Below, piece after piece: positions 14,452 to 19,473 of a stretch of 45,689 nt of DNA. This stretch comes from a virus (Duplodnaviria; Heunggongvirae; Uroviricota; Caudoviricetes). The stretch's first letter is position 1; each line of letters opens with the position of its first letter. Made by a program: the position numbers and the translations under genes. The notes under the pieces were generated by a model. That model was given only the letters and a program-made list of their open reading frames with translations, did no database searches and was not told where the DNA came from. The stretch lies in IMG/VR virus record IMGVR_UViG_2711768009_000006. One strand, 5' to 3'.

Positions 14452-14643
14452 TTACTCCCCGTTCACCGAAAATTCACGATAGAAACGTTTCCACATACGA
14501 TAAGTCTGCGCAAATTGTTCACCACGAAACATCGCCTTCCTGGCCTTCATGTTTTCCTTGTGAGACTTTCGGTCTATGAACCAAAACCATTGCTGGAACA
14601 CACAAAGCAAGAGACACAAAGATAATATCCACTCATTACCCAT
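14452..14643 (-). CDS. Possible small membrane protein (63 aa)
   Basis: Internal ATG of track ORF 14452..14760, overlapping the repA stop by 8 nt; hydrophobic LSLCLLLCVFQQWFWFI; weak SD. Confidence 0.3.
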   Translation of the reverse strand: MGNEWILSLCLLLCVFQQWFWFIDRKSHKENMKARKAMFRGEQFAQTYRMWKRFYREFSVNGE

Positions 14644-17600
14644 AGAAAGCGCCCTGCTCTTCGTAGCTGCATGAGCTATTCCCCGTAATGTATTCACGTA
14701 ACCGCCGCAGCTCATTGCTGGAAAGGTGATCCATGAACTCTGTGAGGTACAGGGATGCAAACGTCATAGCTATGCTGGCTGATGACCATGATGACATAGT
14801 GGCCAACTCCTCACTGGAAAGCGCACTCATCGCCCAGGACTCAGGTACAGCCACTGGCAACACGGCCAAAGCCTCAGAAATTACTGAATGAGGGGCGTTT
14901 TGAACCTGCTCGTTTGTGGATCGCGTTTTATCATCCATATATATATTGAGATCCAAATCGCGATCCATTTCGATGGCTGTCTTCTCGGCTTTACGCGTTT
15001 TTAGGGTTAGGCCATCTTTCTGACGCTGAACAAGAATATCCAGCATAAATGCCGCTGATTCAGGCTCAACAAAACGCAAGGTTGGACGCTTATCGCCGTC
15101 TCTGCCGCGACGTTTACCTGTTTTAAGGCCAAGAGAGTCGCAAATGTTTTTAAACAACGCTTCCGGCACTTTAGGCTTCCCTTTTGGCGTCATAAAACCA
15201 CCAATGTGCAGAACGTTATTCAACAGGTCACGGCGTTCGGCTGTCATGAGGTTATCTCGAGCGAATTTGAGACGCTCCTGAGTCGCCTCGCCGGTCATAG
15301 TCTCAGGGTTGATACCGCAGTCGATAAAGTACTGCCGGAGAGTTGCTGATTTAAGCGCATAGAAACCGCGCGCCCCGACTTCAACAGTAGGAGTAGCTTT
15401 TACCTTGTGATCGATTATTCCAGGGAATTTAGTTTTAAAGACATCATCAGCCTGCTCGCGAGTCATCGCGGTCACTACAAAATATTGCCACTGTCCCGCC
15501 TGACGGTATGCGTAGGTAAAATTGATGGCTGCTTCTTCCCGGTCGTAACGACGAGCTGTTACCTCATCTAAAAGCATTGTTTCATAGCGGCGAACTTTGT
15601 CTCGAGCACCATCGAAATAGAATTTCAGCGTGCCTTCTTCAACCGGTAGTTTCAGTTCGTTTTCAATATCCCAGCGGACAAGTTTTGCCTGTTCTTCAAG
15701 CGTCAGCGCGCGTTTTTTTAGCAGTTCTTCACGCTCTGATTCTTGTGGAGTTTCTGTATTGAGGTGCAGATCCAGTGTCTGTTCCCACACAATATCCCGC
15801 GCTTCTTTACGCAGATCTTTACCGATATCATTCGCAGCATAATCGGTGGCCAGCGGTGATACCTTATAACCGTCGCTGTGCATGATGCAGATCATGTTGC
15901 TGGCGTAGTCGTTACGCGCAGTCGCTTCAATTGCGGCTGCTTTAATTTTCATCCTGGTAAAGTCGGTATTGGCCACCCCCATTGATATACGGTCGCCATC
16001 GAAAACGACATCCGTAAGTTCACCGTTCATACCTGCGGTAGCAAGCAATGCCTGGGCGAATGCTCGTTCTATTTTTTGCGGGTCAGTTTCACGTTTTGCA
16101 CGAGCTTTATCAAAGCCGATAATAAATTCTTTTGCTGTACGGTCGCGGCGTAGCATTTGCACTGCGTCGCTGGGTACAACTTCACCACAGAACATGCCGA
16201 AATGACGGTCAAAATGTTTTTGCTCAATCGACACGCCGGATGAAATAGACGGGCTATAAATCAGGCCGTCGTATTTTTTGACCATCTTTTTCGGTTGATT
16301 GGTAAATGCTTCAACTTCTGGCTCTGGTTTGTTTTTCTGGTTTACACACAGAAATTTCTTACCAGGAAAATGCATTCTCAGGGTGGCTGTCACATCTTCT
16401 GCAAAGGTGGAGCTGTCGGTGGCCAACATGATTTTTTCGCCATCCGATACAGCTTTCACCACCTCGGTCATGATGCGATCTTTTTCTGTATAAAAAACCC
16501 GGATTGGCTCACCTGTTTCGCGGTTGCGAACATCAACAGGTAATTCAATTACGTGGATCTGCAGCCATGCCGGTAAACCTAGTTCTTCACGGCGTTTCAT
16601 AGCCAGTTCAGCCAGGTCAACCAGTAGATCGTTCGCATCAGCATCCACCATGATTGGGTGTTGTTCCGTTCTGGCCAGCGCGTCAATTAGCGTATTGAAT
16701 ACAGCAACCGGGTTTTCCATAGCCCGACCGGAAAGAACGGCACGTAGCCCTTGTGTGGCCTCGTCAAAGCCAAAATAGTCGTGCTGGCGCATCAACGGTT
16801 GCCAGCAGTTTTTAACAATCGAGTTTATGCAGATGGTCAGTTTACTGGCGTATGGAGCCATTTCCTGATAGCCAGGGTCCTGATAGTGCAGGATATCGGC
16901 TTTTACACCTTTTCCTTCTGTCATCATTTCCCACAGGCCACCAATAAGGGAGACACGGTGAGCAACAGAGATACCACGTTCTGAGCTATGCATTAACGGT
17001 CGTAACAATCCAGTAGATTTGCCGGAACCCATACCAGCACGGACGATGACTATCCCCTGTAGTGATTGCACGTACTTCAGGACATCATCGGTCATTACCG
17101 AAGTTTCAAAACGCTTATAGGTGATATGTTGAGGGCGTTTATTGGGATCAGTTATGCGTTCGCTGAAAGAGCGCGGAGCCTGGGCAATACGGCACTTTTT
17201 ATTCAGGCGACGGGCAATGTGGTCTTTTACCGTAGCGCGATAGATATTTTCCAGTCCCATTTCACGCAGAACGATGCAGAACATGTTAAATAAATCTGAC
17301 GGACTGTTAGGAACCGGACAGGTTAGCATGCCAATATCCACCGCTCTCAGCAGCTCTTTGGCAAAAGTACGACGGTTATCCCGCTTAATTGTCTTCAGGC
17401 GGTTGAGCGTCAGAGATAGCAAATCAGTACCGGTTTTCAGGCGGTTTGCTGTTGCAAATAGTTGACGTGCTGTTTCACGAAGTCCACGTAGTTTGTGCAG
17501 GTCGTTGAAGTCACTGCACTCCATTTGCGGATCGTCTTCAAAAGTTGGATAGACGCAGCGGACATCGTTGAATTTCGATAAGATTTCATAGCCAGTCCGC

Positions 17601-18631
17601 AGGCCGGTATTCCCTTTTCCTTCTGTGGCAGATTTCCGGTCATTATCCAGTGCGCAGGTGATTTTTGCCGCCGGGTACATGTTTACCAGTTGTTCCACAA
17701 CATGAACCATGTTGTTAGCGGATACAGCGACAACCACAGCGTCAAAGCGTTTATCTTTTTTCGTGGCAAGCCAGATGGATGCACCAGTAGCAAAACCTTC
17801 TGTAACAGCGATGTTTTGCGCCCCTTTCAGCTCACCGATAACAAAGCAGGCACCGACGAAATCACCGCTGGTTACTGCGCTGGTCTGGTATTTCCCACCT
17901 TGTTTGTCGATTCGCTGCCAACCCACAATACGACCATCATAACGACCGTCCAGGTGAGCCAGAGGGATAGCCATATATGTGGTTGGCCCCCGGCTCCATT
18001 TCGCACTGTCGTGACTGGTCACGCGACGCACATCACATGAACTAAAAACGTCACGAATACCTTTTTTAATCGCATATGGCCATGAGCCGTCTTCAGCCTG
18101 AGCATGTTCCCACGCGCTGTGGAATGCCAGCCATCCCAGCAAACGTTCATGGTCCATTTGGTTGTTTTTCAGATCATTAATTCGTTTTTGTTCTTCACGG
18201 CGACGACGTGCTTCGGCCTGACGTTCTATTCTTTCCCGTTCTTCTTCTGGTTGTGCGACCACGGTCGCATTATTCCGTTGTTGCTCACGGCGATATTCAG
18301 AAAACAGGAAGGAGAAACCGCTCCATGAGCCAGCATCGCTGCCTTTATGGACGAAGTTAATGAACGGGTAATCAATCCCTTTGCTGTGTTCCAGCCTGGA
18401 GTAAATTTCTACGCGTCCTTTCAGGCTCTTTTCGAGAGCTTCTGGAGATGTTTTATTGTATGAAGAGTAACGCTCAACCCCTCCGCGAGGGTTGAGTTGT
18501 ATGTTGTCGGAACAGGCAGGCCAGTTGATACCAGCCATCTGTGCCAGCTCGGTTAGTTCATCCCGTGCTGCTTCAATTAGCGAGAACGGATCGCTGCCAA
18601 AGCGATCCGCATAGAAATCGTTTAATGTCAT
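14636..18631 (-). CDS. repA: Replication initiator RepA (primase plus helicase multidomain protein)
   Basis: 1331-aa ORF; Walker A AGMGSGKST in the C-terminal half; size and position next to cB match N15 RepA. Confidence 0.93.
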   Translation of the reverse strand: MTLNDFYADRFGSDPFSLIEAARDELTELAQMAGINWPACSDNIQLNPRGGVERYSSYNKTSPEALEKSLKGRVEIYSRLEHSKGIDYPFINFVHKGSDAGSWSGFSFLFSEYRREQQRNNATVVAQPEEERERIERQAEARRRREEQKRINDLKNNQMDHERLLGWLAFHSAWEHAQAEDGSWPYAIKKGIRDVFSSCDVRRVTSHDSAKWSRGPTTYMAIPLAHLDGRYDGRIVGWQRIDKQGGKYQTSAVTSGDFVGACFVIGELKGAQNIAVTEGFATGASIWLATKKDKRFDAVVVAVSANNMVHVVEQLVNMYPAAKITCALDNDRKSATEGKGNTGLRTGYEILSKFNDVRCVYPTFEDDPQMECSDFNDLHKLRGLRETARQLFATANRLKTGTDLLSLTLNRLKTIKRDNRRTFAKELLRAVDIGMLTCPVPNSPSDLFNMFCIVLREMGLENIYRATVKDHIARRLNKKCRIAQAPRSFSERITDPNKRPQHITYKRFETSVMTDDVLKYVQSLQGIVIVRAGMGSGKSTGLLRPLMHSSERGISVAHRVSLIGGLWEMMTEGKGVKADILHYQDPGYQEMAPYASKLTICINSIVKNCWQPLMRQHDYFGFDEATQGLRAVLSGRAMENPVAVFNTLIDALARTEQHPIMVDADANDLLVDLAELAMKRREELGLPAWLQIHVIELPVDVRNRETGEPIRVFYTEKDRIMTEVVKAVSDGEKIMLATDSSTFAEDVTATLRMHFPGKKFLCVNQKNKPEPEVEAFTNQPKKMVKKYDGLIYSPSISSGVSIEQKHFDRHFGMFCGEVVPSDAVQMLRRDRTAKEFIIGFDKARAKRETDPQKIERAFAQALLATAGMNGELTDVVFDGDRISMGVANTDFTRMKIKAAAIEATARNDYASNMICIMHSDGYKVSPLATDYAANDIGKDLRKEARDIVWEQTLDLHLNTETPQESEREELLKKRALTLEEQAKLVRWDIENELKLPVEEGTLKFYFDGARDKVRRYETMLLDEVTARRYDREEAAINFTYAYRQAGQWQYFVVTAMTREQADDVFKTKFPGIIDHKVKATPTVEVGARGFYALKSATLRQYFIDCGINPETMTGEATQERLKFARDNLMTAERRDLLNNVLHIGGFMTPKGKPKVPEALFKNICDSLGLKTGKRRGRDGDKRPTLRFVEPESAAFMLDILVQRQKDGLTLKTRKAEKTAIEMDRDLDLNIYMDDKTRSTNEQVQNAPHSVISEALAVLPVAVPESWAMSALSSEELATMSSWSSASIAMTFASLYLTEFMDHLSSNELRRLREYITGNSSCSYEEQGAFYG
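18254..18269. promoter_or_regulatory. SopB-type centromere-like palindrome TGCGACCACGGTCGCA (inside the repA 5' coding region)
   Basis: 7-bp inverted arms TGCGACC/GGTCGCA with a 2-bp centre; encodes NATVVAQ in RepA; same architecture as the recalled F sopC core TGGGACCACGGTCCCA. Confidence 0.55.
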
Positions 18632-18754
18632 TTTTTAGCCATTCCATGCGAATTATGTTTTTTCGGGTTGAAAAAATCCGCAGGAGCAGCCACAATAAAC
18701 GCATCTTGAATTGACGGAATCCGTCGCGTTACTGTGGCTGCTTCCTGAAAAGGA

Positions 18755-18782
18755 CCCGAGTTTGCCGACTCGGGTTTTTTTT
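18755..18782 (+). terminator. Strong plus-strand rho-independent terminator in the repA upstream region
   Basis: CCCGAGT-ttgccg-ACTCGGG followed by 8 T; no plus-strand coding gene lies upstream. Confidence 0.6.
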
Positions 18783-18876
18783 CGTCTTTTTTCTGCTGCT
18801 GTAACCTGAGTCAACCCACAGAACATATGCCCTGCATTAAACCAGATTTACAGCAAACAATAAACCCCGTATTAAG

Positions 18877-19473
18877 TCATCTACCCTCAACCATGAATGA
18901 TTTGATCGTTCCGACTATTTGGTGAACAAATTCAAGATCGCTTTTCCTGAAGATGGCGCGTTGTGAGTTTGTTCCATCCAGATAGTAATTTTCATCATCA
19001 AAACGGGCCAGGCGCTGGATAGTGATATTTCCTGCAGTATCACGAACCAGAACATCCTCGCCGGGGACCAGTTCCAGCGCAGAATCGACCAGGAGAAAAT
19101 CGCCTGGCTGATAGTTTCCCTGCGTAAGATTGCTGATAGTTAACGCATACACAGTATTGCGCTGGCTGATGAATGGCAGGAATCGCTCAGTATTTGGAAC
19201 CTGTCCCGGCTTCCACTCTTCATCCGGCCCACTTTCAGTTGTGCCAATAACAGGAATGCGATCAGGGTCATATTCTGTCCCATATAGCACCCAATGCACT
19301 GGCTTGCGTAAGCACTTAGCCAGGGCAATACCTATCTCCAGTGACGGCATTACGTCGCCACGTTCTAAGTTTTGGACGCCTGCTATAGAGATATCGACAG
19401 CCTCAGCAACTTCTCGCAACGTCAGCTTCATCTCTAAACGGCGTGCTTTCAGTCGTTCGCCTCGTGTTTTCAT
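18877..19473 (-). CDS. cB: Prophage repressor CB (CI/LexA-like)
   Basis: 198-aa ORF with N-terminal HTH (LTLREVAEAVDISIAGVQNLERG) and a C-terminal domain of CI-like size; divergent from cro with operators between. Confidence 0.88.
   Translation of the reverse strand: MKTRGERLKARRLEMKLTLREVAEAVDISIAGVQNLERGDVMPSLEIGIALAKCLRKPVHWVLYGTEYDPDRIPVIGTTESGPDEEWKPGQVPNTERFLPFISQRNTVYALTISNLTQGNYQPGDFLLVDSALELVPGEDVLVRDTAGNITIQRLARFDDENYYLDGTNSQRAIFRKSDLEFVHQIVGTIKSFMVEGR

Follow-up and report, generated by a model that had tools for sequence, protein, structure and literature searches.

A putative antisense transcription unit lies in the cB–repA intergenic region of an N15-like linear phage-plasmid, which was analyzed as one stretch of 45,689 nucleotides (IMGVR_UViG_2711768009_000006; hereafter, the window). 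The reading we favor, at a probability of roughly 0.65 judged from sequence comparison, is that this unit produces an ~80-nt constitutive non-coding counter-transcript that is homologous to the predicted Pinc RNA of phage N15 and would limit RepA synthesis and plasmid copy number. In two phage groups, the promoter and terminator of the putative ctRNA are strongly constrained by purifying selection; the RNA itself is predicted. The element is already present as a prediction in the GenBank record of N15, and what we describe is a rediscovery, not a new find. An earlier note on this DNA had proposed a cis-antisense RNA over the repA leader in a copy-number control layout. That layout gains support from the N15 annotation, from purifying selection and from conservation in PY54-like relatives, and one of its parts, the assignment of a long nested hairpin to the antisense RNA, falls.

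Organization of the cB–repA intergenic region

Over the 600 bases around the locus, the window shares 99% identity with Escherichia phage YDC107_1 and PhiR46_1 and ~81% with N15, phiKO2 and many linear phage-plasmids of Klebsiella, Enterobacter and Citrobacter. Homologous plasmids are represented by 214 records (Klebsiella, Escherichia, Enterobacter, Citrobacter and Shigella), and the element occurs on plasmids in 18 of 5426 complete E. coli genomes, annotated in none. Several contigs and plasmid records hold two repA leader copies, e.g., NZ_CP031108.1 and IMGVR_UViG_3300045988_113976, the latter with the copies in opposite orientation; such records may be palindromic-dimer assemblies of a hairpin-ended linear plasmid.

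The region separates the gene for a CB-type prophage repressor from repA, whose 1331-aa product is of the primase-helicase type (Table 1). CB binds both OL1 and OL2 and lowers copy number (PMC4997575), and its inactivation raises copy number from ~5 to ~50 (PMC2847241). A rise of only this size would be compatible with the existence of a second controller. Between ~13.4 and 19.5 kb, every sizeable entry in the ORF list is on the minus strand, in agreement with the earlier statement that no plus-strand gene lies upstream, and nothing there therefore needs the plus-strand terminator described below. Two further structures were seen inside the repA coding region: a terminator-like palindrome (GCTCAACCCCTCCGCGAGGGTTGAGT, 18472-18497), flagged on both strands and unconserved among relatives, and an 8-10-bp hairpin on the minus strand (GCGGATCGCTTTGGCAGCGATCCGT, 18586-18610, within codons 8-16), predicted in most variants despite synonymous changes.

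Table 1. Features of the cB–repA region, in window coordinates
Feature	Position	Strand	Details
repA	14636-18631	-	1331-codon ORF
repA ribosome-binding region; repA ATG	18636-18648; 18631-18629	-	ORF list and N15 annotation
Candidate leader ORF, 43 aa (speculative)	18573-18704	-	ATG complementary to first bases of antisense RNA
Near-invariant 41-nt block holding the antisense promoter	18661-18701		mean pairwise difference 0.003 (28 distinct homologues)
Pinc -35 hexamer, TTGAAA	18668-18673	+	equivalent to N15 U45242.1 56-61
Pinc -10 hexamer, CACAAT	18691-18696	+	17 nt past -35; equivalent to N15 U45242.1 79-84
Long leader hairpin, 65 nt	18682-18746	-	ΔG -34.7 kcal/mol, z = -6.5 in the window
Predicted antisense (counter-transcript) RNA, ~80 nt	18703-18782	+	start placed from -10, end from T8
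Single-stranded 5' tail, proposed nucleation site	18703-18715	+	complements apical/internal loop of leader hairpin
Stem-loop I (weak prediction)	18716-18745	+	ΔG -7.5 to -14.7 kcal/mol, mean z = -0.9
Intrinsic terminator of antisense RNA	18747-18782	+	core stem 18755-18774, T8 18775-18782
Same hairpin in repA sense, then UCCUUUUC	18744-18782	-	weaker terminator/attenuator of leader; N15 annotation
repA promoter PL (predicted), start of target leader	18825-18864	-	-10 18836-18841, -35 18859-18864; from N15 annotation
CB operators OL1; OL2	18825-18840; 18848-18863	-	overlap PL; from N15 annotation
cB, CB-type prophage repressor gene	18877-19473	-	78% identical to N15 CB

The promoter that the earlier note had suspected, TTGAAA with a weak -10, is present on the plus strand, the -10 being CACAAT (four of six consensus positions) at a distance of 17 nt. 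The 45.7-kb window contains a single TTGAAA-17 nt-CACAAT pattern, where 0.05 would be expected. In a consensus scan, 9/12 matches were found twice where 1.7 are expected, which alone is not significant, and -10 matches as good as this one occur at chance frequency; the weight of the promoter call therefore comes from conservation and not from match score. The terminator likewise reads as had been described, with CCCGAGT/ACTCGGG followed by eight T. Its 7-bp GC-rich core stem is extended by A-U pairs to 16 pairs, and the GC-rich hairpin passes directly into a U-run on the transcribed strand.

These elements have counterparts in the N15 immB record (GenBank U45242.1), which annotates 'Pinc; promoter of putative antisense RNA' (-35 at 56-61, -10 at 79-84), a 'putative terminator of RNA antisense to repA transcript' (144-171) and, on the other strand, a 'putative terminator of repA leader transcript' (133-163, corresponding to window 18744-18774), as well as OL1 and OL2 overlapping a putative repA promoter, PL. 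In pairwise alignment, the N15 features are colinear with the window, the hexamers are identical, and the terminator at 144-171 maps to 18755-18782 with 28 of 28 bases matching. In the phiKO2 record, the homologous hairpin is labeled 'terminator, putative bidirectional'. By position, promoter and terminator, the locus is thus the orthologue of Pinc, itself a putative feature in N15; the earlier note had been unsure whether such an element was described there, and it is. Our search of the accessible full-text literature found no paper testing the N15 antisense RNA.

With its start placed at A18703, 7 nt downstream of the -10, the predicted RNA is complementary over its whole length to the central part of the ~200-nt repA leader, which is transcribed from the CB-repressed PL, and the antisense-covered region ends ~55-70 nt before the repA Shine-Dalgarno region. 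All 27 distinct homologous versions of the RNA (80-86 nt) fold into a 5' tail (12-13 nt unpaired), a stem-loop and the terminator. Across these variants, the probability of being unpaired averages 0.89 for the tail and 0.58 for its leader target, compared with 0.29 for the rest of the target; in every one of the 27, the models place the tail complement in the more accessible part of the target. Folding thus predicts an RNA with an accessible element that matches an accessible element of its target, as in ctRNA control. Stem-loop I was rejected as an established structure: RNAalifold on a MAFFT alignment returned one compensatory pair, the mean z was -0.9, and its two halves showed no co-evolution (native halves gained only ~1 kcal/mol over chimeras, of which 34% were as stable). 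A search of the region against Rfam at E <= 10 gave no CopA or other ctRNA family, the best matches being chance, terminator-driven hits below gathering scores, and at gathering scores over the whole window no model matched the repA-leader RNA locus.

Both parts of the long nested hairpin can be read from the sequence as the earlier note had them, with an outer stem (GCAGCCACA at 18686-18694, complementary to TGTGGCTGC at 18733-18741) and an inner palindrome (GACGGA-A-TCCGTC, 18713-18725). Its attribution to the antisense RNA does not hold, because the 5' arm overlaps the -10 and lies upstream of the predicted start. With the -10 inside this arm and transcription beginning at about A18703, the RNA lacks the arm; the full hairpin is thus a feature of the minus-strand repA leader, that is, of the target. 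Structure is strong on both strands relative to shuffled sequences (plus strand, 18660-18790: -59.9 kcal/mol, z = -6.7, 0 of 200 shuffles as good; minus strand, 18620-18800: -60.3 kcal/mol, z = -5.6). Strand assignment of the hairpin by G-U asymmetry was also tried and was uninformative, the energies being similar on both strands. The leader hairpin is present in all 26 variants tested (ΔG -24 to -37 kcal/mol, z -3 to -9.7), with a variable 5' arm and loop and an invariant 3' arm, and this 3' arm is the opposite strand of the 41-nt promoter block.

Selective constraint in close and distant relatives

Homologues were gathered by RepA similarity or region BLAST, and hence the set (25-28 distinct sequences) is not biased towards the motif. 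The mean pairwise difference was 0.363 at repA third codon positions, 0.003 in the block 18661-18701 that contains both hexamers, 0.042 in the terminator block 18749-18795 and 0.346 in the RNA body 18702-18748; diversity over 18755-18774 was 0.0. On these figures, the promoter is ~100-fold and the terminator ~9-fold more constrained than neutral sites. The RNA body of ~45 nt drifts at about the neutral rate, with indels, and looks near-neutral. Diversifying selection for incompatibility was considered for the body and rejected, its divergence tracking that of repA third codon positions (r = 0.76) and never exceeding it. Taken together, these comparisons speak for a genuine plus-strand transcription unit.

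The invariance of 18661-18701 spans the spacer and 7 nt upstream of the -35, across relatives that are ~20% diverged. Such invariance goes beyond what a sigma-70 promoter needs, and the leader strand must be the source of part of the constraint. The overlapping hairpin 3' arm accounts for some of it, and the block may also contain a protein-binding site.

A more distant group, comprising PY54, vB_YenS-P840 and two Salmonella plasmids (including pAR-0403), encodes RepA proteins ~50% identical to that of the window. A GC hairpin is also present in their leaders; it is unrelated in sequence and has a T-run next to it on the antisense side, and ~80 nt ahead of it lie TTGCGC or TTGCAC, an 18-nt spacer and TACAAT (PY54 and P840) or TAAAAT (Salmonella pAR-0403), giving predicted RNAs of 71-73 nt. 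In a six-sequence alignment, the -35 TTG and -10 positions 2, 4, 5 and 6 (A2, A4, A5, T6) are invariant and the surroundings differ. The PY54 hairpin lacks a U-tract on its repA-sense side (CUUCGUAC) and can therefore terminate only antisense transcription. We regard the conservation of terminator and promoter in this group as the strongest argument from sequence for real, selected plus-strand transcription. The counterpart region, at 760-880 of the extracted PY54 stretch and ~480-600 of the Salmonella plasmid stretches, is unannotated in the PY54, P840 and pAR-0403 records. In VP882, whose RepA is 31% identical, no comparable terminator was found.

The promoter and the leader hairpin also appear to be constrained jointly. 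Between PY54 and Salmonella, there is a compensatory double change at the pair involving -10 position 3 (TACAAT/UUGUA versus TAAAAT/UUUUA), and a reading of the hairpin arms suggests that the position 1 pair is likewise compensatory between the N15 group (CACAAT) and PY54 (TACAAT). These changes preserve both the hairpin and the promoter consensus.

Proposed mode of action and competing explanations

As we picture it, the single-stranded 5' tail of the RNA would base-pair with the long leader hairpin at its exposed loop, and pairing would then spread into the hairpin 5' arm and the terminator hairpin; folding models make this contact followed by duplex extension the likely route. The duplex would lower RepA synthesis after transcription initiation. 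As RNA dosage would rise with copy number, the result would be negative feedback, and probably incompatibility, on top of CB repression. The complementary region ends well before the repA Shine-Dalgarno sequence, and inhibition must therefore be indirect. Candidate inhibitory steps are blocking of a leader ORF, RNase III cleavage and enhanced termination, of which the first two are more likely. Two other modes were modeled and rejected. For translational control by refolding, masking of the antisense-bound leader produced no consistent change in repA RBS accessibility (27 variants), and no conserved RBS-sequestering helix was found across variants. For pT181-type induced attenuation, no GC hairpin with a U-run appeared before the RBS when the antisense-bound leader was folded, and the freed 3' arm formed no terminator.

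The leader ORF that such blocking would affect has its ATG or GTG exactly under the RNA 5' end in 46 of 47 variants. In 25 of 46, its stop either overlaps the repA ATG or precedes it by 4 nt; in N15, it comprises 25 codons with a TGA overlapping the repA ATG. It runs into repA in 20 of 46 variants, the window (43 codons) among them, where it extends 59 nt into repA in another frame. The arrangement found in N15 and in roughly half of the variants is one of translational coupling; because conservation is mixed, coupling to repA is kept here as speculation.

The same region could instead act only in cis, as a structured leader whose bidirectional terminator would end cB read-through and attenuate PL transcripts; the promoter-like hexamers would be incidental, and there would be no functional antisense RNA. 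The long hairpin is indeed the best-supported structure of the locus (z -3 to -9.7 over 26 variants) and the stem-loop of the RNA itself is unsupported, the invariance of the 41-nt block exceeds promoter needs, the promoter match is only 9/12 and of chance frequency, and the N15 and phiKO2 records themselves call the hairpin a leader or bidirectional terminator. However, both phage groups have an invariant T-run on the antisense side, whereas on the sense side the window has a weak U-tract (UCCUUUUC) and PY54 none. The key -35 and -10 positions are retained even where RepA has diverged by ~50%, with the changes at -10 positions 1 (C/T) and 3 (C/A) keeping the consensus, and in either group the 5' end predicted for the RNA falls together with the hairpin loop. 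Since the T-run and the key promoter positions are invariant across two divergent groups, this explanation is weakened, and we hold it to be unlikely.

Antisense transcription might also be real and act in cis only, through collision of polymerases from Pinc and PL, the RNA product having no role. The two promoters converge ~130 nt apart with the bidirectional terminator between them, and folding demonstrated no RNA-level inhibitory mechanism. Against this, the N15 record uses the name Pinc, which implies incompatibility as a phenotype, that is, action in trans, albeit putative; a conserved, efficient terminator, together with a 5' tail complementary to the target loop, points to a discrete, stable RNA, and interference alone needs no invariant T8 terminator. 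We judge pure interference to be distinctly improbable.

That the plus-strand transcript encodes a small protein, as a small plus-strand CDS across the homologous region in the automated annotation of Klebsiella phage Kpn74 would have it, can be dismissed as a very remote prospect: no ATG preceded by a Shine-Dalgarno sequence occurs in the predicted 80-nt RNA, indels in its body are not multiples of three among relatives, and the sole plus-strand ORF here (18541-18714) begins upstream of the promoter. The Kpn74 CDS ('hypothetical protein', 713-898 on the plus strand of the extracted stretch) is almost certainly a mis-annotation; in the same annotation, repA is broken into many small plus-strand CDSs.

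If the counter-transcript is real, it would add a second layer of copy-number control, after CB, to N15-type linear phage-plasmids and would be a likely determinant of which of them coexist in one cell. The pJAZZ linear cloning vectors derive from the N15 replicon, which includes the element. It is unannotated in RefSeq records and has no Rfam family, and a curated model would be useful.

Comparison with known replication-control systems

In plasmid R1 (IncFII), copy number is controlled by the CopB repressor, the CopA antisense RNA and the tap leader peptide. The window resembles R1 in that a repressor gene just upstream controls the rep promoter (CopB and PrepA there, CB and PL here), a constitutive antisense RNA of ~80-90 nt with its own terminator (predicted here) is encoded within the rep leader, its target is well upstream of the rep RBS, and a short leader ORF is possible, ending on the repA ATG in N15. 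It differs from R1 in showing no sequence or Rfam similarity to CopA, and in lacking a supported recognition stem-loop, the predicted contact being from a 5' tail to the target loop. In addition, coupling of the leader ORF is inconsistent (20 of 46 variants read into repA), the leader holds a bidirectional terminator, and RepA is a 1331-aa protein of the primase-helicase type. By analogy, R1 is the nearest system in logic; on these features, the RNA falls outside the CopA family. The analogy can be carried further, to a convergent three-part controller in which CB would correspond to CopB, the Pinc RNA to CopA and the 25-43-aa leader ORF to tap, the drifting 45-nt body would set N15-, phiKO2- and PY54-like incompatibility groups, and promoter and target would co-evolve with the -10 locked in an arm of the target hairpin. 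We put this extension forward tentatively, and think it rather doubtful.

Antisense-driven transcription attenuation of the rep leader is the mechanism of pT181 and pIP501. There, as predicted here, a counter-transcript complements the rep leader, which also contains a terminator ahead of the rep start. In the window, however, the terminator hairpin is constitutive and located at the 5' end of the complementary region, and is not antisense-induced.

The phage-plasmid carries a second antisense system. At Rfam gathering level, the window contains C4 antisense RNA (RF01695, 13084-13170, minus strand), as well as matches to isrK (RF01394, 13196-13269, minus strand) and IS009 (RF02111, 7570-7768, plus strand); the C4 and isrK matches we take to be the antirepressor-control RNA locus of N15. 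The C4/CA RNA of P1, P7 and N15 is like the Pinc RNA in being a small regulatory RNA of the same phage-plasmid, but it belongs to a different locus (the antirepressor operon) and a different family, the Pinc RNA having no Rfam model; C4 is unrelated to the repA-leader RNA.

The closest match is N15 itself. Pinc occupies the same place between cB/PL/OL and repA on the strand opposite repA, and TTGAAA, the 17-nt spacing, CACAAT and the terminator (CCCGAGTTTGCCGACTCGGG-T8) are all identical; by contrast, identity drops to 57% over the 45-nt body that separates promoter from terminator. The window comes from a different N15-like phage-plasmid, and the YDC107_1 records carry no such annotation. PY54, P840 and pAR-0403 match the window in architecture, with a TTG-18 nt-TA(C/A)AAT promoter, a predicted RNA of ~72 nt, an antisense-facing terminator and, again, a -10 inside the leader hairpin arm, but their sequence is unrelated outside the promoter core and T-run, and the hairpin of their leaders has far less stability (-11 to -14 kcal/mol). 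That rep genes can be under antisense control is textbook knowledge, and with this instance predicted for N15, the element represents no new kind of biology. The PY54-group counterpart and the joint constraint on -10 and hairpin, while revealing nothing new in kind, strengthen the old prediction.
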